Assembly (NCBI GenBank): GCA_963843685.1
Contig: CAWJLO010000005.1
Coordinates: forward strand, 790 to 64,789
Length of the DNA: 64,000 nt
From: an uncultured Chloroflexia bacterium
GTDB lineage: Bacteria > Chloroflexota > Dehalococcoidia > DSTF01 > JACRBR01
Direction of reading: 5' to 3'
The notes below the pieces were generated by a model. The model did not search any database. It was not told the origin of the DNA and saw nothing but the letters and a program-made list of their open reading frames with translations. Of this stretch, positions 2 through 53,394 are shown piece by piece. The number at the start of each line of letters is the position of its first letter. Position 1 is the first letter of the stretch. The position numbers and the translations under genes were made by a program.

Positions 2-118
2 GCCCAGGGCGTCAACGTCAAGCTGATCGCGGATATGCTCGGCCATGCGGACGTGTCCACCACGCTCCGGGTGATTCGGATCGGGCCGAGAGTTGTGGTG
101 GAGACGGGGGAGAATTGA
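2..118 (+). CDS. C-terminal fragment of a tyrosine recombinase/integrase-like ORF; it runs off the left window edge and its 3' end overlaps the tmRNA 3' end
   Basis: Frame 2 reads AQGVNVKLIADMLGHADVSTTLRVIRIGPRVVVETGEN*. The LGH..TT box resembles the C-terminal box of tyrosine recombinases, but the usual Y in the R-Y-x-H region is absent. The last 23 nt overlap the ssrA 3' end, as is typical of int-attL junctions. Confidence 0.35.
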   Translation, partial: AQGVNVKLIADMLGHADVSTTLRVIRIGPRVVVETGEN

Positions 119-449
119 ACTCCCCGTCCAGGTGAGCGACGCCCTGAGTCTGCTACAAGCTTATCCCTGCAGTTAGGTCTCGCCGCGTCCGTCCGCTGAG
201 GGCCCGTCCGGATACGGCCAGCCGATGGTCTTAGGCGCGCCTCATCGGCGTCGTGCGCGCAGCGCCCCGGACAAATCGTCGCTCATTCCCATTCCGCCGG
301 GGTTAGTCAGGGATGAACGTCACTGCCTAGGCAGCGAGGGCGAGTTGTGATTCGCCGTTTATTTGTTGGCCACCTGGATTAAGGAGGTCGATGGCCGCCC
401 TCCGCCTGCAACTCAGATCCGCCGATCCCTGTCGAGCCCTTTCGTCCCC
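96..449 (-). ncRNA. ssrA: tmRNA (SsrA), about 354 nt
   Basis: The minus strand starts GGGGACGAAAGGGCUCGACAGGGAUCGG (a tRNA-like 5' end) and ends GGACGGGGAGUUCAAUUCUCCCCGUCUCCACCA (T-arm plus acceptor plus CCA). The 5' GGGGACG pairs with the 3' CGUCUCC. The internal tag reading frame ends ..GESQLALAA-UAG, and smpB lies 1 kb downstream. Confidence 0.85.
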
Positions 450-551: not shown

Positions 552-1433
552 TCAGGGCGCCCAGGCGAGCGTACTCGCGCCGCGCTCGTCGCGCAGATGC
601 GTCGCCGTGCCGGACGCCGCGGCAATCTCCCACAGCGCCGCCGAAGAGCACGCGTAGAGCACGCTGGCGTCGCGGCCATAGGTGAGGCCCGCCACGGGCT
701 CGGTGAGCGAGGCGATGTGCGCAGGAACGCCGCCGGCCGCCGTCACGGACCACAGGTCACCGGCGGCGTCAGAGCCGCTGGCGGTGGCGTAGGCGACGGT
801 GCGGCCGTCCGGCGCGAACGCGATCGCCGTAATCACGCTGGACGGGGCCGTCGAGGCGAGATGCTGCTCGTTGCGGCCGTCCGCGCCCGCGATCGACAGC
901 TCTGTCGCGCCTTCCTGCGATGATCGCAGCAGCGCGAGCGACGAGCGGTCACGCGAGAGCGCGAAGTCGTCCACGCCGTCCGCAAGCGGAGTCCGTTCAC
1001 CCGTGCCGGCGTCGATCCGCTCCAGATCGACGCTGGAGCCGGTACGGATGACGGCCAGCACGGTCTGGTCATCGAGCCATTGTAGATGCCCGATCTCGAC
1101 GTTGGCGTTCTGCACGGACGGATGCGGGTCACTGCCATCCTCGTTCGCGATCCAGAGCTCGTCAGCGTCGCCGTTGGTGTTCGCGCCGGCCGGCTGCAAC
1201 GCGCGGACGTAAGCGATGCGTTTTCCGTCCGGGGATTCGGCGGGTTGGCGCAGCACGACGCCGTTTCCACCGACCGGGGCCGTGACCAGCGTCGCCTGCG
1301 CCGAGCCCACGTCGTAGGCGAAGATGCTGCCGCCGTCAGCGAGCAGCAGGCGTCCCTTGCCGGGCCCGCCGCAGAGAAACGCCACAGCGGCGATTCCGGC
1401 GAGAGCGAACGTGGCGGCTTTTCGTGCCTGCAT
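552..1433 (-). CDS. secreted or lipoprotein beta-propeller protein with PD40/TolB-like repeats
   Basis: The ORF begins MQARKAATFALAGIAAVAFLCGG (signal/lipobox-like) and carries repeated SPDGKRIAY and APDGRTVAY motifs. It sits immediately downstream of smpB. Confidence 0.55.
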   Translation of the reverse strand: MQARKAATFALAGIAAVAFLCGGPGKGRLLLADGGSIFAYDVGSAQATLVTAPVGGNGVVLRQPAESPDGKRIAYVRALQPAGANTNGDADELWIANEDGSDPHPSVQNANVEIGHLQWLDDQTVLAVIRTGSSVDLERIDAGTGERTPLADGVDDFALSRDRSSLALLRSSQEGATELSIAGADGRNEQHLASTAPSSVITAIAFAPDGRTVAYATASGSDAAGDLWSVTAAGGVPAHIASLTEPVAGLTYGRDASVLYACSSAALWEIAAASGTATHLRDERGASTLAWAP

Positions 1434-1446
1434 ATGCAGCGAGAGC

Positions 1447-1905
1447 CTACCGCGCGCCGTGTCGCAGGGCGCGCTGGATGTCGCGATCCGCGTCGCGCTT
1501 CGCGATGGCCTGCCGCTTGTCCCACTGCTTGCGGCCACGGGCCAAACCCAACTCGACCTTCGCTTTGCCGTCCTTCAAGTACATGCTCAGCGGCACGACG
1601 GTCAGTCCGCGCTCGGCGATGGCGCGCGTCCAGTCGCGGATCTGCGCCTTGTGGAGCAGCAGGCGCCGCGGCCGCGTCGGCTCGTGGTTCTGGTAGCTGC
1701 CGGCATCGTACGCGGCGATGTGCGCGCCGTACAGCCACATCTCTCCATCCCGGGGCTGCGCATGTGCTTCGCGAATGTTGGCGTTGCCGGCGCGAATCGA
1801 CTTGATCTCGGTGCCGGTGAGCGAGATGCCCGCCTCCACGCGCTCGAAGATCTCGTAGTCGTGGAGTGCCTTGCGGTTCGCGGCGACCTGTTTGATCTCG
1901 GCCAT
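1447..1905 (-). CDS. smpB: SsrA-binding protein SmpB
   Basis: 152 aa, MAEIKQVAANRKALHDYEIFERVEAGISLTGTEIKS..., a canonical SmpB. Confidence 0.9.
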   Translation of the reverse strand: MAEIKQVAANRKALHDYEIFERVEAGISLTGTEIKSIRAGNANIREAHAQPRDGEMWLYGAHIAAYDAGSYQNHEPTRPRRLLLHKAQIRDWTRAIAERGLTVVPLSMYLKDGKAKVELGLARGRKQWDKRQAIAKRDADRDIQRALRHGAR

Positions 1906-1919
1906 GCGGCGGGTGCGGC

Positions 1920-3260
1920 CTAGCCGCCGGTGCGCGTGGGCGTCGCGTTCTCGTCGGGCGTCGTCGTCTCCGCCGGGGTCGCGTCCTGCGGCTGCGGCGT
2001 CAGCGCCTCCGCCGGCGTCGTGTCGGTGCCTTCCAGCACGTCGATCGCCTTGAAGAGCTGGACGTCGCGGTTACCGTCGATATCGGCGTCACTCGGCGTC
2101 ACCGCGATGTCCGGCCGGATGCCCACGCCGTCGATCTGCGTGCCGTTGGGCGTCAGCCACTTCGCGATGCTGATGTAGAGCTGTCCGCCGTCCTTCAGGT
2201 CGTTCGAAACGTTCACCGTGCCCTTGCCGAACGACTTCTCGCCGACGATCGTCGCGCGGCCGTTGTCGTGCAGCGCCGCCGAAAGCACCTCGGAGCCGCT
2301 GGCGCTGAAGCGGTTGAGGATGATGACCACCGGAAGCTTCGTGGCGATGCCGCCGCTGTGGGCGCGAAACTCCTGTTTGCTCCCGTCGCGCTCCTGTTCG
2401 GTGAGGATCAGCTTGTCGGCGTCGAGAAAGTCGTTGGCGACGTCAGCCGTGGTGCGGAGCAGGCCGCCGGGGTTGTTGCGCAGGTCCAGGATCACCCCCT
2501 TCTTGCCGCTGTCGAGGATGTCCTGCAACGCCGTCTGCATCTCGCCTTCGGTCTGCTCCGTGAACTCGCGGATGTGGATGTAGCCGATGTCCGTGATCGC
2601 GTTTCCGGCGCCGTCCTTCAGCGTGCCCCCGGGGGGCACCGTGGTGACGCTCGCCACCTTGATTTCGTCACGCTCGATCTCGATCGTCTGCTCGGTCCCG
2701 TCGTCGTGCTTGACCTTGAGCGTGACCTTCGTGCCCTTGGGGCCGCGGATCTTGAGGACGGCCTTCTCCTGCGTCCAGCCGGCCGTCGACTCGCCATCCA
2801 CCTCTTCGATGATGTCACCGGCGCGGATCCCGGCGCGCTGCGCCGGCGTGTCGTCGATCGGCGACGTGATCACGATCTGGCCATTCTGCTCGGCCACGGT
2901 GGCGCCGATGCCTTCGAACGTCCCGCTCGGGCCGACGCTGGTGTTCACGGTGTCCGGGTCGACATAAAACGTGCCGCTGTCCGGGAACGTCTGCAGCATG
3001 CCCGTGATAGCGGCCTCGTACAGCGTCTGCTGGTCGACGAGGGAGGGGTCGACGTACTTCTGCTGGAGAAGCTGGTAGATCTGGTTCAGCTCGTCGAAGT
3101 TGAGGTTCGCCGCGGTCTCGGTGCCGTTATTCGAGGTCTGGGCCGCCGCGCCGGACGAACTGCTGTTGTCCCCGCGCGAGATGTAGCCGACGGCGAAGGC
3201 GAGGATGAGAATTGATGCGCCGAGCAGCCCCAGCACCGACCACCGCGCGGCTTTCAACAT
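1920..3260 (-). CDS. ctpA: carboxy-terminal processing peptidase (S41 family) with PDZ domain and N-terminal membrane anchor
   Basis: 446 aa with a PDZ region followed by the S41 core (GYIHIREFTEQTEGEM...LRNNPGG). An RBS AAGGAG lies upstream. Confidence 0.85.
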   Translation of the reverse strand: MLKAARWSVLGLLGASILILAFAVGYISRGDNSSSSGAAAQTSNNGTETAANLNFDELNQIYQLLQQKYVDPSLVDQQTLYEAAITGMLQTFPDSGTFYVDPDTVNTSVGPSGTFEGIGATVAEQNGQIVITSPIDDTPAQRAGIRAGDIIEEVDGESTAGWTQEKAVLKIRGPKGTKVTLKVKHDDGTEQTIEIERDEIKVASVTTVPPGGTLKDGAGNAITDIGYIHIREFTEQTEGEMQTALQDILDSGKKGVILDLRNNPGGLLRTTADVANDFLDADKLILTEQERDGSKQEFRAHSGGIATKLPVVIILNRFSASGSEVLSAALHDNGRATIVGEKSFGKGTVNVSNDLKDGGQLYISIAKWLTPNGTQIDGVGIRPDIAVTPSDADIDGNRDVQLFKAIDVLEGTDTTPAEALTPQPQDATPAETTTPDENATPTRTGG

Positions 3261-3375
3261 TCGGCCCTGACTCCTTGTGCGAGCCGGACGAGGGCGGGGG
3301 CGCCGACGCCTCGGTCAATCGAGATCGGACGGCAGTCTAACACTCGTACGATCGCGCCAACAATCGAAGATGCGC

Positions 3376-4194
3376 CTACGCGACGTCGCGTCCACGGGGG
3401 TTGCGCGCCGCCTTCTGGTCGTACAGCCGGCGGTCCGCGATCTGCAGCAGCTCACCCGGCGTGCGCGAGTCGTCCGGGCAGACGGCGACGCCGATCGACA
3501 GCCCGAGCTTCACACTCTCCTCACCGGGACTCAATTGAGCGGCCTGGCGCACCGCCGTGGAGAGCTTCTCCGCGGTCGAGCGCCCCTCGTCGATGCCCGT
3601 GTTCGGCAGGATGACGACGAACTCGTCGCCGCCGTAGCGGGCGGCGATGTCGCTGCCGCGGATCTGGCGCGAGATCACCTGGCCGACGAGGCTCAGGAAC
3701 TTGTCGCCGATCAGGTGGCCGTACGTGTCGTTGATGTCCTTGAAGTTGTTCATGTCCATGAGCAGCACCGTGAGCGGCTGGCCGTAGCGCAGCGAGCGCT
3801 CGACCTCGTGCGAGAGCTGCTCGTAGAAGTAGCGGTGGTTGTAGAGGCCGGTGAGGCCGTCGCGGTACGCCATCGTGCGGAGACGCTGGCTCAACTCCTC
3901 GAGGTGCGCTGAGTACGCGCGCTCGAGGTCGACGTGCAGGCGGCGGGACCTCGCTGACATGAAGATGCCGTAGGCGCCGCACGCTACGAGGCCGAACACC
4001 TCGAGCGCGCTCAGGTTCCACCTCGACATAATGTCTGGCCCGGCGAAGATCAACGCTGTCGTCCCGGCGAACAAGAGCGCACCGACCGCGCCGATGAGGT
4101 GGTCGGTTGGCCGGCGCGGCCGGCGCGCCGACGGCTCGGGGCCGATCCCGGTCAGGATGCTCTGGTGAGCCTGCATCGTTGCTGGCGAGTCCAA
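3376..4194 (-). CDS. membrane-anchored diguanylate cyclase (GGDEF domain)
   Basis: Two or three N-terminal TM segments are followed by DGLTGLYNHRYF...RYGGDEFVVILP (GGDEF with RxxD). It is preceded by a roughly 250-nt 5' leader containing a TTCAAC-16-TATGTA promoter-like site. Confidence 0.8.
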   Translation of the reverse strand: MDSPATMQAHQSILTGIGPEPSARRPRRPTDHLIGAVGALLFAGTTALIFAGPDIMSRWNLSALEVFGLVACGAYGIFMSARSRRLHVDLERAYSAHLEELSQRLRTMAYRDGLTGLYNHRYFYEQLSHEVERSLRYGQPLTVLLMDMNNFKDINDTYGHLIGDKFLSLVGQVISRQIRGSDIAARYGGDEFVVILPNTGIDEGRSTAEKLSTAVRQAAQLSPGEESVKLGLSIGVAVCPDDSRTPGELLQIADRRLYDQKAARNPRGRDVA

Positions 4195-4545: not shown

Positions 4546-5478
4546 CTACTTCTGTGGCGTCTCGGGAATCCGGGTCGATGATCCGCGCAGGATGTCGATC
4601 ACGGCTGCCAGCGGGTCGCCTTCTTGCTCGTCGTCGTTCAGGCGCCGTTCCGCGCCGACGATGTCGAGTAGCGTGGTGCTGGGAGTCTGAGCCGGCGCCG
4701 GGCTGGACGGCAGTGCGACGGACGTCTCGGCCGGCGGCTTGAGGCCGACGCTGTTGCGCCAGTGCGAGATCATCGCGGCCGTCGAGTCCCGCAGGTCGCC
4801 GGCGCTGACGGCGTCGTCGTCGGTCGCGCGCGTGGCCTGGCGCATGAGCGACAGCTCCGGCAGCCTCGGCTTGGGCACATCGATGCGCGGTGCCCGCAGC
4901 TCGGGCGCGGAGATCTGCGGCATAGTCAGCGTAATCGCCGGGAGCTGGCGTCGCAGCGCCCGCGTCGCCACCAGCGCGACGGCGGCGCAGGCGATTCCGA
5001 CCGCGAGGAGTGGATTCACGCCCAGCCACGCGGTCCCGCCGAGAAACGCCAGGCAGGCGGCGCCGCCGGCGTACCACGGCCAGTGGTCCCGCGGGATTCG
5101 GACACTTGGCAGCGTGATGGCCGGCATTGAAATCGAGACGCGGCGCGTGCCCGTGCCCTCGTCCGGTCCGGGGCCGGATCCGGCTGCCGCTTTGGGCGCC
5201 TTCCGCTTCTTCTGCCGCTTCTGCTTGGAGGACACTGGCTGAATCATGCCCTTGCGGATGAGCACGTCGTCCCGGAAGGCGTCGTACTGCTGCCGCAGTC
5301 GCGACGTCCCGAGCACGCCGTATGCCTCGTTGAGCTCGTCCAGCATGACCCGGCCGCCGGGATTCGTCTGCGCCAGCGCCTGGTACTTGCGCGCCAGATG
5401 CCAGTAGGCCTGGTCAACCATCATGCCGTCGGCGCTGGGGGTGAGCCCCAGGATCTCGTAGTAGTCGCGGTCACTCAT
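4546..5478 (-). CDS. J-domain (DnaJ-like) membrane protein with a degenerate HPD motif
   Basis: The N-terminus reads DYYEILGLTPSADGMMVDQAYWHLARKYQ... (J-domain helix II/III) but has no HPD tripeptide. A lysine-rich linker, one TM segment and a Pro/Ser-rich tail follow. Confidence 0.55.
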   Translation of the reverse strand: MSDRDYYEILGLTPSADGMMVDQAYWHLARKYQALAQTNPGGRVMLDELNEAYGVLGTSRLRQQYDAFRDDVLIRKGMIQPVSSKQKRQKKRKAPKAAAGSGPGPDEGTGTRRVSISMPAITLPSVRIPRDHWPWYAGGAACLAFLGGTAWLGVNPLLAVGIACAAVALVATRALRRQLPAITLTMPQISAPELRAPRIDVPKPRLPELSLMRQATRATDDDAVSAGDLRDSTAAMISHWRNSVGLKPPAETSVALPSSPAPAQTPSTTLLDIVGAERRLNDDEQEGDPLAAVIDILRGSSTRIPETPQK

Positions 5479-5817: not shown

Positions 5818-6030
5818 GTGACATCTTCCTCAACCGACGCCGTCGTCGACTACCGCGGTCGCATCATGTTCTATTGCGACGTGTGCCGGGCCCCGATCAC
5901 CAAGGACGACTTCTTCAACCTCGGCCTTCGCTTCCCGGATGCCGACGAGAGCAAGGACGACTACTGCGAGTCTGAGCTCGTCGACGGCGTGACACACCCG
6001 GCCTGCCTGCGGGCCTCCCGCGCCGGCTGA
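5818..6030 (+). CDS. small Cys-containing hypothetical protein (70 aa)
   Basis: A GTG start is preceded by GGAGGT 9 nt upstream. The CDVC...C..THPAC spacing suggests a zinc ribbon. The amino-acid composition is not GC-frame-artifact-like. Confidence 0.3.
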   Translation: MTSSSTDAVVDYRGRIMFYCDVCRAPITKDDFFNLGLRFPDADESKDDYCESELVDGVTHPACLRASRAG

Positions 6031-6079: not shown

Positions 6080-6108
6080 TTGACGCGCCCCCGTCTTCGC
6101 GATAGCGT
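6080..6108 (+). promoter_or_regulatory. sigma-70-like promoter (TTGACG-17-TAGCGT) driving the leader of the antiporter gene
   Basis: The -35 hexamer is at 6080-6085 and the -10 at 6103-6108 with a 17-nt spacer; the predicted transcription start is about 6115. Confidence 0.3.
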
Positions 6109-6116
6109 GCCAGCGA

Positions 6117-6232
6117 ACCCACAAAGGGGAGTAACTGGCCCGCCCCTCAAGTCCGGCGGGCAGTCCGGATCGCCAGACCCGGCCTCAACAGCCCGGTCCG
6201 GACAACTCCGCAACGCTGCGCGGAGGCGGTGA
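6117..6232 (+). ncRNA. candidate yybP-ykoY (Mn2+) riboswitch aptamer in the 5' leader of a cation antiporter gene
   Basis: ACAAAGGGGAGUAACUGG at 6121-6138 matches the conserved AAAGGGGAGUAG L1 motif. A GC-rich paired region follows, and the UGAGACC 3' strand overlaps the downstream terminator stem. The regulated gene is a metal-cation transporter, the canonical context for this riboswitch. Confidence 0.45.
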
Positions 6233-6270
6233 GACCTTTGATGACTGTCACGTCATCAAAGGTCTTTTTT
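6233..6270 (+). terminator. intrinsic terminator or attenuator: 13-bp perfect stem (GACCTTTGATGAC/GTCATCAAAGGTC), 6-nt loop, T6 tract
   Basis: The inverted repeat is seen directly in the sequence. It lies 23 bp upstream of the antiporter start, so it is an attenuator of that gene rather than the terminator of an upstream gene. Confidence 0.7.
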
Positions 6271-6292
6271 CGTAGCGGGAGGCCTCGCCGAG

Positions 6293-7501
6293 TTGGAGCT
6301 TCGTCGCTGGCAATGGCCGATCGCCATGGCGCTTCTCGCCTGGCCCGCCGCAAGCCTGCGTATGGGTCTCTGGGGCGCCGGGCAGCCGGTCGAGACGCTG
6401 TGCTACGGCCTCGCCATCGTGTCGGCTGCGTTCCTCCTCACCTGGTGCGCCGAGGCCGCCGAACGCGACATCCCTCGCACGTTAGCGCTGGCCGGGCTCG
6501 CGCTGGTCGCGGTGCTGCCGGAGTACGCCGTCGACATGCTCTTCGCGTGGAAGGCGGGCCACGACCCGTCGTACGCGGCGTTCGCCACCGCGAACATGAC
6601 GGGCGGCAACCGGCTGCTCGTCGGCCTGGGCTGGACGATGGTGGTCGGCATCTTCTGGATCCGCACGCGCAAGAGTCTCCTGGAACTGGCCGCGCTCCAC
6701 CGCACGGAGGTCGGGCTGCTCGGCGTCGCGACCGTCTATTCGTTCGTCATCCCGCTGCGCGGCGGCCTCACGCTCTTCGACGCGGCATTTCTCGTCGGCC
6801 TGTTCTGCGTCTACGTGTATCTCGCGTCCCGCGGCGAGATGGAGGAGGAGTCGTCACTCGTCGGGCCCGCCGAGACGATCGCGAATCTCCCAATGAGACA
6901 GCGGCGGATGCTGGTGCTCGCGATGTTCCTCTACGCTGGTGCGTCCATCCTCGTGGCGGCCGAGCCGTTCGCCGACGGCCTGATCAAGACGGGTGTGCAG
7001 TTCGGCATCGACGAGTTCCAGCTCGTGCAGTGGGTCGCCCCTCTGGCGTCCGAGTTCCCGGAGTTCCTCGTCGCCGGGCTGTTGGCGTGGAGGATGCGTG
7101 CCGACGCGGCGCTCGGCGCCCTCGTCTCGTCGAAAGTGAACCAGTGGACGCTGCTCATCGGCTGCCTGCCCATCGCCTACGCGATCTCGAGCCACAGCAT
7201 CAATCCGCTGCCGACCGACACGCGCCAGACCGAGGAGGTGTTGCTGACGGCGGCGCAGAGCCTCCTCGCCGTGATCATGCTGTTGAACCTGCGCATGTCG
7301 CTGTGGGAAGCGGGCATCCTCGCTGTGCTGTTCCTGGCACAGTTCCTGACACCGCACTCGATCGTCCCGCGCAACGTCTTCTCCGCCATGTACCTGGCGT
7401 TTGCGGCCGTCTTCATCGTGCGGGCATACGTCGAGATGCGGCCGTTTCTCCCGCAACGCGTCTTCCGTGGTCCGGCGCCCGGCCTCGATCGCCCGGCCTA
7501 G
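6293..7501 (+). CDS. CaCA-family cation (Ca2+/Na+ or Ca2+/H+) antiporter, 10-12 TM segments
   Basis: Two alpha-repeat-like motifs are present (GLALVAVLPEYAVDMLFAWKAG and VAPLASEFPEFLVAGLLAW). A TTG start is preceded by GGGAGG. Confidence 0.55.
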   Translation: MELRRWQWPIAMALLAWPAASLRMGLWGAGQPVETLCYGLAIVSAAFLLTWCAEAAERDIPRTLALAGLALVAVLPEYAVDMLFAWKAGHDPSYAAFATANMTGGNRLLVGLGWTMVVGIFWIRTRKSLLELAALHRTEVGLLGVATVYSFVIPLRGGLTLFDAAFLVGLFCVYVYLASRGEMEEESSLVGPAETIANLPMRQRRMLVLAMFLYAGASILVAAEPFADGLIKTGVQFGIDEFQLVQWVAPLASEFPEFLVAGLLAWRMRADAALGALVSSKVNQWTLLIGCLPIAYAISSHSINPLPTDTRQTEEVLLTAAQSLLAVIMLLNLRMSLWEAGILAVLFLAQFLTPHSIVPRNVFSAMYLAFAAVFIVRAYVEMRPFLPQRVFRGPAPGLDRPA

Positions 7502-53127: not shown

Positions 53128-53394
53128 GGTCGTGCACCCGCTGTCGATCGGGCCCTTCGGCTTAACGGCGCTAGCCAGCTCCGGCCCGGTAACCCTACGG
53201 CACCCGAAGCAAACTACTTACCGCTGCTTCCTTCCGGACCTGACGGGGTTCATAGCGCTTCGCCGCGTAGGACCAGGCCCTCAACGCCGCTCGGCGCAGC
53301 CAGTTCCCAGGTACACCAACCTCGAGCGGGGATTCAGCCCCGCTATAGCGGCTTGCGGGTACAGGGCACCGCTGGCTCCCCGCCTAGCACGACC
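53128..53394 (-). ncRNA. ffs: signal recognition particle RNA, long Bacillus-type (Alu domain plus S domain), about 267 nt
   Basis: The minus strand reads GGUCGUGCUAGGCGGGGAGCCAGCGGUGCCCUGUACCCGCAAGCCGCUAUAGCGGGGCUGAAUCCCCGCUCGAGGUUGGUGUAC... then GUCAGGUCCGGAAGGAAGCAGC (domain IV) and ends ...GAUCGACAGCGGGUGCACGACC. The 5' and 3' ends pair (GGUCGUGC/GCACGACC), and there is a near-collinear match to the B. subtilis scRNA Alu and S domains. Confidence 0.85.

Follow-up and report, generated by a model that had tools for sequence, protein, structure and literature searches.

A predicted Mn2+-sensing yybP-ykoY riboswitch in the leader of a CAX_Af-type cation antiporter gene from an uncultured Dehalococcoidia bacterium

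Riboswitches of the yybP-ykoY family are built around a four-way junction with two stacked legs, in which P1.1 serves as the switch helix, L1 forms a sarcin-ricin-like loop that pushes a conserved adenine into P3.1, and L3 carries an invariant adenine whose N7 contacts Mn2+ (PMC6754395, PMC12153347). This L3 adenine is A41 in the Lactococcus lactis and A48 in the Xanthomonas oryzae representative, and in both Mn2+ stabilises P1.1 against invasion by the terminator strand (PMC6754395). Validated members vary in L3, and alx has no P2 (PMC12153347). In Bordetella pertussis, BP3410 encodes a CaCA-superfamily Mn exporter that is under the control of a yybP-ykoY riboswitch and induced by Mn; without Mn, transcription stops in the leader and the terminated transcript accumulates as BprK, an RNA of ~200 nucleotides (nt) (PMC8546581). 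Here we describe a candidate member of this family in a 64,000-nt stretch of contig CAWJLO010000005.1 (hereafter the window) from an uncultured bacterium of the phylum Chloroflexota, class Dehalococcoidia, where it precedes a CaCA-superfamily antiporter gene. We put the probability that it is a Mn2+-sensing yybP-ykoY riboswitch which switches this CAX_Af-type antiporter gene ON at the level of transcription at roughly 0.82, with Mn2+ taken as the ligand by analogy with the described members. An original prediction from the same DNA had proposed such an element, and its individual claims are considered below together with the results that bear on them.

The leader and the gene behind it comprise the following features, where R1 and R2 are covariance models described further on.
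6081-6109, plus strand: putative promoter, from its sequence and the conservation of both hexamers in orthologous leaders; -35 TTGACG at 6081-6086, 17-nt spacer and -10 TAGCGT at 6104-6109, as read from the sequence
6121-6138, plus strand: ACAAAGGGGAGUAACUGG, read from the sequence
6122-6240, plus strand: candidate yybP-ykoY-type aptamer with a four-way junction, from folds, anchored pair tables, covariation and the models R1 and R2
6122-6127 / 6235-6240, plus strand: P1.1, CAAAGG/CCUUUG, 6 bp
6128-6133 / 6231-6234, plus strand: L1, GGAGUA (with the conserved A6130) opposite GAGA
6134-6137 / 6227-6230, plus strand: P1.2
6138-6161, 6163-6203 and 6206-6225, plus strand: three GC-rich hairpins, from a single-sequence fold
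6138-6144 / 6155-6161, plus strand: P2
6163-6172 / 6194-6203, plus strand: P3.1
6173-6180, plus strand: L3 bulge CCAGACCC, one-sided, 8 nt
6175, plus strand: L3 adenine A6175, putative counterpart, by alignment, of the Mn2+-contacting adenine that is invariant in the family (A41 and A48 of the L. lactis and X. oryzae members)
6181-6183 / 6191-6193, plus strand: P3.2
6206-6211 / 6220-6225, plus strand: P4
3' end at 6240, plus strand: GGUGAGACCUUUG, read from the sequence
6231-6270, plus strand: intrinsic terminator, from a terminator scan; 15-bp stem with 6 G-C pairs, 6-nt loop UGUCAC and U6 at 6265-6270
6277-6282, plus strand: ribosome-binding site GGGAGG, lying outside the terminator and separated by 10 nt from the TTG start
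6293-7501, plus strand: open reading frame (ORF) of a CaCA-superfamily CAX_Af-type cation antiporter, 402 aa, TTG start, from Pfam and PDB matches

The L1 motif pairs GGGGAGUA at 6126-6133 with GAGACC at 6231-6236 on the opposite strand; it is invariant in 14 of 14 orthologous leaders and likewise aligned in Escherichia coli mntP, in agreement with the original prediction, which had recognised a conserved yybP-ykoY L1 motif here and described GC-rich helices 3' of it, now located as three hairpins at 6138-6225. With the L. lactis and X. oryzae riboswitches the window RNA shares the four-way junction, the stacked legs, L1 as GGGGAGUA/(A/G)AGACC, the CA of L3 and a P1.1 3' strand common to an intrinsic terminator, as in those ON switches (PMC6754395). 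It differs from them in being GC-rich (68%), in its L3, CCAGACCC, which begins with C and has 8 nt where 7 are usual, in a P1.2 of AC/GU instead of GC/GC, and in the class of the downstream gene. The L3 bulge of L. lactis is about UCAAUUC. Across the 48 distinct aligned aptamers, where L3 is usually UCAUUAC, ACAGCAU or UCAGCAC, the dinucleotide CA occupies bulge positions 2-3 without exception (48/48; consensus N-C-A-N-N-N-N), and the alignment sets A6175 of the window against the CA in the mntP bulge of E. coli (ACAUACU); A6175 would thus take the position of the Mn2+-contacting adenine. The extension of P3.1 is UCG/CGG in the window and UCA/UGG in other members, a pair that covaries (GC in 36 and AU in 12 sequences), and the AC/GU of P1.2 is replaced by compensatory changes to GC, UA and UA in the wider alignments. 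Two pairs of P3.1 adjoin L3, the invariant C6171-G6195 (CG in 48/48, alignment columns 86/140) and G6172-C6194, and either may be the G-C receptor for the cross-helix A-minor contact made by L1. Since validated members also vary in L3 and one of them, alx, lacks P2, the window RNA, as judged from its sequence, lies within the known range of the family.

Composite motif and fold both exceed chance: the window holds a single GGGGAGTA-N80-110-GAGACC where 100 shuffles give an expectation of 0.00, and the z-score of the fold is -5.4. A second aptamer copy was sought in the window and none was found, the best other match reaching 12 bits (E = 4.5).

Homologs of the antiporter number more than 6000, the nearest of which (75-91% identity) all belong to metagenome-assembled genomes of Dehalococcoidia or other Chloroflexota. 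From these, 17 close orthologous loci were taken; one is truncated upstream, leaving 16 informative loci (Dehalococcoidia), and in 13 of the 16 GGGGAGTA lies ~150-170 nt 5' of the antiporter gene and the leader aligns throughout. A set of 14 leaders was used for clade comparisons. Independent folding recovered the three hairpins in 12 of 14 cores. MAFFT alone misplaced P4 and the hairpin loops and was replaced by flank-anchored counting and by model-based realignment. In the flank-anchored counts, paired cells make up 97% in P2 (37-45% in shifted registers), 99% in P3.1 (28-56%) and 90% in P3.2 (12-55%); the corresponding figure for P4, 99% vs 49-58%, is biased by anchoring on the minimum free energy (MFE) fold of each sequence. 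Covariation was counted in three alignments. In A2 (MAFFT, aptamer only, n = 14), 95.1% of cells are paired and 9 pairs have changes on both sides, against 2.3±1.1 in shuffled controls, none of 500 reaching 9, and 0-2 in slid registers. A3, which was fitted to R1 (n = 17), has 97.3% of cells paired and covariation in 20 of 32 pairs (5.5±1.7 shuffled, at most 5 slid), with 3 of 6 pairs in P1.1 and 2 of 2 in P1.2 among them. A4, fitted to R2 (n = 65, 48 distinct), has 96.1% of cells paired vs 67.5% when shuffled, both-side changes in 403 cells vs 116±10, and a score of 0.618 vs at most 0.112 in slid registers. The helices described in the original prediction are thus supported by covariation.

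R1 is a covariance model made from the close-clade leaders, and R2 is R1 widened with three divergent matches, so that it holds 14 Dehalococcoidia and 3 Actinomycetota leaders and no E. coli sequence; they score the window aptamer at 100.3 and 94.6 bits, respectively. The narrow R1 retrieved four divergent loci, L059, L070, L055 and L053, all Actinomycetota, and failed to find E. coli mntP or the Thermomicrobiales leader L022. R2 matches E. coli mntP (L081, 10465-10573) at 54.6 bits (E = 9.8e-13, model positions 1-107, filters off), the sole significant match in 20 kb with the next at E = 0.11, in an alignment that spans GGGGAGUA, P2, P3.1, the CA of L3, P3.2, P4 and GAGACC. It also matches L053 (32.8 bits) and L022 (29 bits, E = 1.4e-5), where the aptamer lies directly 5' of a CaCA homolog. 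The GGGGAGTA occurrences in L080 (at 1800 and 2020) were rejected as chance, with R2 scores of 13.4 and 9.5 bits (E > 0.2). The validated mntP riboswitch (PMC12153347) aligns over its full length to a model derived from this clade. It differs from the window element in that it acts on translation, has a long expression platform and lacks a terminator, and in having ACAUACU as L3 and MntP, not a CaCA protein, as the product of its gene. Another described system with a similar architecture, the NiCo (czcD) riboswitch, is likewise a metal-sensing H-shaped four-way junction that blocks terminator formation (PMC6754395); it differs in having no L1-L3 docking interface, in binding several metals inside the junction and in lacking the GGGGAGUA/GAGACC motifs. 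The Rfam scan of the window gave no NiCo match, no dedicated NiCo search being made.

Downstream of the junction, GACCUUUGAUGAC (6233-6245) and GUCAUCAAAGGUC (6252-6264) form the perfect 13-bp stem of the original prediction, followed by T6 at 6265-6270; the terminator scan extends this stem to 15 bp (6231-6266) through A-U and G.U pairs, using two U of the tract. The hairpin is computed at -23 kcal/mol, and each of the 14 orthologous leaders can form it, with energies between -18 and -26 kcal/mol. The T-tract ends 22 nt upstream of the TTG at 6293, close to the 23 bp given in the original prediction. The ten nucleotides GAGACCUUUG (6231-6240) are at once the 3' strand of L1/P1.1 and the beginning of the terminator 5' arm, an overlap that had been correctly read from the window and is conserved in 14 of 14 leaders. 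Pairing of P1.1 and pairing of the terminator are consequently mutually exclusive, which is the ON-switch geometry that had been proposed. For the nascent RNA up to 6245 the MFE structure is the four-way junction with P1.1 (-56.4 kcal/mol), whereas the full-length RNA favours the state with the terminator (-75.6 kcal/mol) over the enforced aptamer state (-59.6 kcal/mol); P1.1 alone contributes ~-5 kcal/mol vs -23 kcal/mol for the hairpin. Since the terminator state wins by 16 kcal/mol in this model, the leader would be OFF by default and would be turned ON when a ligand stabilises P1.1. Control appears to be purely transcriptional, because the ribosome-binding site is unsequestered; GGAGG is found at the same position in the orthologs, in which ATG or TTG starts occur at the homologous codon. 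In the leader L022, too, a terminator of its own overlaps the 3' strand of P1.1.

From the published structures of family members we infer a docking mechanism of the following kind. Transcription would begin a few nt past TTGACG-17-TAGCGT, and the nascent RNA would fold into the four-way junction with the stacked legs P1.1-L1-P1.2-P2 and P3.1-L3-P3.2-P4. At low Mn2+, GUCAUCAAAGGUCUU would invade the weak 6-bp P1.1, the 15-bp terminator would form and the polymerase would halt at U6. At high Mn2+, the metal would bridge L1 (GGGGAGUA/GAGACC) and L3 (CCAGACCC, adenine 6175) and the legs would dock, so that P1.1 would be locked, the terminator 5' arm withheld and the antiporter gene reached by readthrough; the antiporter would then export surplus Mn2+.

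The upper part of the terminator stem, GAUGAC/GUCAUC (6241-6245 / 6252-6256 and the homologous positions in L001-L017), has an identical sequence in each of the 14 leaders, unlike the stems of P2, P3.2 and P4, which covary freely. An alternative pairing partner for this invariant segment was looked for and none was found.

The promoter-like TTGACG-17-TAGCGT of the original prediction is present at 6081-6109, and in the form TTGAC(G/C)-N17/18-TAGCGT it is kept in every one of the 14 orthologous leaders as well as in three orthologs without the aptamer (L007, L010 and L016). Because the hexamers are kept while spacer and flanks vary, we take them as the phylogenetic footprint of a real promoter, whose conserved position would place the transcription start at ~6115-6118, a few nt 5' of P1.1. 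In L007, L010 and L016 the upstream small ORF is present together with the promoter, and L010 and L016 are without the terminator as well; loss of the riboswitch in these three looks lineage-specific. L007 keeps a degenerate hairpin and U-tract, CCUUGAUGGGCC...GGCAUCAGGGGUCUUUUUU. These loci bear on a simpler explanation of the window hairpin and U-tract, namely that they are the plain terminator of the upstream 70-aa ORF (5818-6030), which has the right strand and lies 5' of them. We find this barely credible: the hairpin stands 200 nt past the ORF stop with a conserved promoter and aptamer in between, its 5' arm belongs to the aptamer, and the aptamer-less L010 and L016 lose the terminator while keeping both ORF and promoter.

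The gene at 6293-7501 had been called a metal-cation antiporter, and its product indeed contains two Na_Ca_ex (PF01699) domains (E = 6e-22). Among solved CaCA structures it matches PDB entry 4kpp_A (E = 3.7e-94, residues 33-373) and, up to E = 1, none besides; the acidic motifs of the alpha-repeats are kept (LPEYAVD and ASEFPE aligned with LPEYAVD and ASESPE of 4kpp_A). We take 4KPP to be CAX_Af, the H+/Ca2+ exchanger of Archaeoglobus fulgidus. The existence of a structure of the CAX_Af H+/Ca2+ exchanger is confirmed (PMC10227063). Neither the antiporter nor the upstream 70-aa ORF received a name from NCBIfam. Most likely the antiporter exports Mn2+, as predicted from the riboswitch and from the genomic association with TerC set out below. 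That a transporter of this superfamily belongs to the gene classes regulated by the riboswitch, as originally claimed, has its precedent in BP3410 (PMC8546581). The BP3410 leader with its RNA BprK and the window element, as predicted here, have in common the riboswitch family, the logic of a stop in the leader without Mn and induction with it, and the transporter superfamily with two Na_Ca_ex domains. They differ in host, Bordetella as opposed to Chloroflexota, class Dehalococcoidia, and in the nearest crystallised homolog, reported as the Methanocaldococcus jannaschii NCX for BP3410 while the window protein matches only 4KPP (CAX_Af). Because these nearest structures differ, the two proteins probably sit in different CaCA branches.

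The genes behind related aptamers were surveyed with a gene-blind metagenome scan for the pattern AAGGGGAGTAAC-N65-95-GTGAGACCTT, which returned at least 120 loci; of the 99 that were searched with R2, 63 gave a significant aptamer match. Downstream genes were classified by BLAST, inspection and Pfam spot checks, 108 being classifiable among the matches listed. The downstream gene was defined as the longest ORF, the first ORF of >=80 aa having given spurious frames that overlap the terminator in GC-rich loci. The following counts, all among the matches listed, were obtained.
TerC family: about 78 loci
CAX_Af-type CaCA: 17 loci
DUF1232 gene followed by a VTT/DedA gene: 6 loci
P-type ATPase: 2 loci
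OAD_beta: 2 loci
unknown: 3 loci
contig end before any ORF: 12 loci
TerC proteins and P-type ATPases are classic members of the yybP-ykoY regulon. An aptamer 5' of a CAX_Af-type CaCA gene was seen in 16 of 80 protein-seeded loci and in 17 of the 108 classifiable motif-seeded loci among the matches listed; canonical aptamers likewise stand 5' of CaCA homologs in Thermomicrobiales and Actinomycetota (L022, L053 and L055). CaCA homologs that are 46-47% identical to the window protein stand behind an aptamer whose L3, ACAGCAU, is that of TerC-associated aptamers.

Other arrangements were also observed. In two Actinomycetota contigs, L059 (2366-4818) and L070 (~1378-3729), a CaCA homolog has an aptamer immediately 3' of it, with a TerC-family gene next in line; control may be translational there, because no obvious terminator was found 3' of the aptamer. 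In L084 (6282-7565, minus strand) and L153 (39-818, plus strand) the aptamer is directly 5' of a gene for the beta subunit of a Na+-transporting oxaloacetate decarboxylase, an unusual class for a yybP-ykoY riboswitch, with PF03977 matched at E = 4e-153 in L084. Six loci of 35-36% GC (L112, L101, L144, L150, L158 and L186) carry the aptamer, a small DUF1232 protein and a membrane protein with a VTT/DedA domain, in L112 with both domains confirmed with Pfam, and in L082 a single locus holds two aptamers (313-408 and 1478-1567).

Several points weigh against the assignment of the window element as a Mn2+ riboswitch. Two of them concern the metal: the L3 of the Dehalococcoidia clade is slightly atypical, with C at bulge position 1, a length of 8 nt and a CCC tail, and the nearest structurally characterised relative of the antiporter is described as an H+/Ca2+ exchanger, not as a Mn2+ exporter (PMC10227063). 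Both would suit an aptamer with the same fold and ON logic that answers other or broader divalent cations (e.g. Ca2+, Cd2+, Fe2+ or Co2+), the more so as, in the published view, affinity for the metal may be adjusted within the family through the sequence of L3 (PMC12153347). We consider this unlikely, as the metal-contacting CA and all of L1 are unchanged, the position-1 C is also found in the TerC-associated aptamer L139, and CaCA genes elsewhere lie behind the same ACAGCAU bulge as TerC genes. A hard ion such as Ca2+ would moreover be unexpected at an adenine N7, from what is known of the family (PMC6754395), and a CaCA protein under this riboswitch class does export Mn (PMC8546581).

The remaining points on that side concern the evidence for the aptamer and its promoter. 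P1.1 and P1.2 are invariant inside the close clade, their covariation comes from the model-fitted alignments A3 and A4, and the search pattern behind A4 had already fixed P1.2 and the inner pairs of P1.1. A consensus promoter scan did not call the promoter, because its -10 hexamer agrees with TATAAT at only 3 of 6 positions. Finally, the original prediction had looked to a significant match with the Rfam family RF00080, and here it did not hold: at the Rfam gathering thresholds only tmRNA and the large signal recognition particle (SRP) RNA are reported in the window, RF00080 is not, and in a permissive local scan it is the top family at 6114-6254 with 16.5 bits (E = 0.016), far under the gathering score of 45 bits in the Rfam 15 copy used. 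The validated riboswitch of E. coli K-12 mntP (L081, 10462-10558, upstream of b1821), run as a control, likewise goes unreported at gathering with 41.6 bits, as do all of 20 further aptamer-carrying loci (39-77% GC, 5' of TerC, P-type ATPase or CaCA genes), 17 of which are significant with our own model. In a batch Rfam E-value scan of 10 loci, L022, L053 and L055 were not reported, yet our own models later matched all three. The 177-position RF00080 model is without the 3' P1/L1 strand, and a long 3' segment of it is mostly deleted in the alignments. Treating the miss at gathering as a refutation was dropped after these controls; since the same model misses the validated mntP and 20 other loci, a score below gathering says little with the copy used.

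The sub-threshold Rfam score is also one of three observations that would agree with a ligand-independent leader, whether a constitutive attenuator, a short structured RNA ending at the terminator or a decayed riboswitch. The others are the three orthologous loci that lost the aptamer and kept the promoter, by which regulation would be dispensable in some lineages, and the accumulation of the terminated B. pertussis leader as BprK, ~200 nt (PMC8546581). Such a leader is very improbable in our view, given purifying selection exactly on the ligand-site residues, compensatory changes in every peripheral helix over 14 to 48 sequences, the strictly conserved overlap of P1.1 and terminator, and the strong full-length match to a validated riboswitch.

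Directly 5' of the riboswitch promoter, the 70-aa ORF (5818-6030, plus strand) has a CxxC...HxxC pattern, without a match in Pfam or NCBIfam. It is syntenic in 15 close orthologous loci with 31-71% identity and follows the pattern F.C..C..P...DDFF.LGLR.P...ES..DY..AEL.D...H..C, and may encode a small protein that binds metal and has a link with the antiporter locus. Elsewhere in the window, the translation of 3376-4194 (minus strand) contains a GGDEF motif (RYGGDEF), which suggests a candidate diguanylate cyclase, and an ORF at 4546-5478 (minus strand) combines a DnaJ J-domain with a long tail of low complexity. The tmRNA (124 bits) and the large SRP RNA, of the bacterial type with an Alu domain (198 bits), lie at 96-449 (minus strand) and 53130-53392 (minus strand), respectively, and both accord with the window being of Chloroflexota origin.

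The window element, read as a Mn2+ riboswitch, is an ordinary, previously unannotated member of the yybP-ykoY family, and its pairing with the CaCA superfamily already has an experimental precedent in BP3410; in itself this is routine annotation of a further Mn2+ riboswitch, here from a lineage of uncultured Dehalococcoidia. Annotations that rely on the RF00080 copy used here would under-call Mn2+ riboswitches. A bolder interpretation, by which the clade aptamer with its 8-nt L3 (C-C-A-N-A-C-C-C) has a shifted metal selectivity or affinity, tuned to the cation moved by its CAX_Af-type H+/cation exchanger, strikes us as quite doubtful; a milder version is more likely, in which the riboswitch would mark the CAX_Af branch as physiological Mn2+ exporters across several phyla. 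This leads to the testable prediction that Mn2+ is the ion exported in vivo by the CAX_Af branch, the crystallised member of which has been described as exchanging H+ for Ca2+; if true, it would extend the single experimental precedent for CaCA proteins, that of B. pertussis BP3410.

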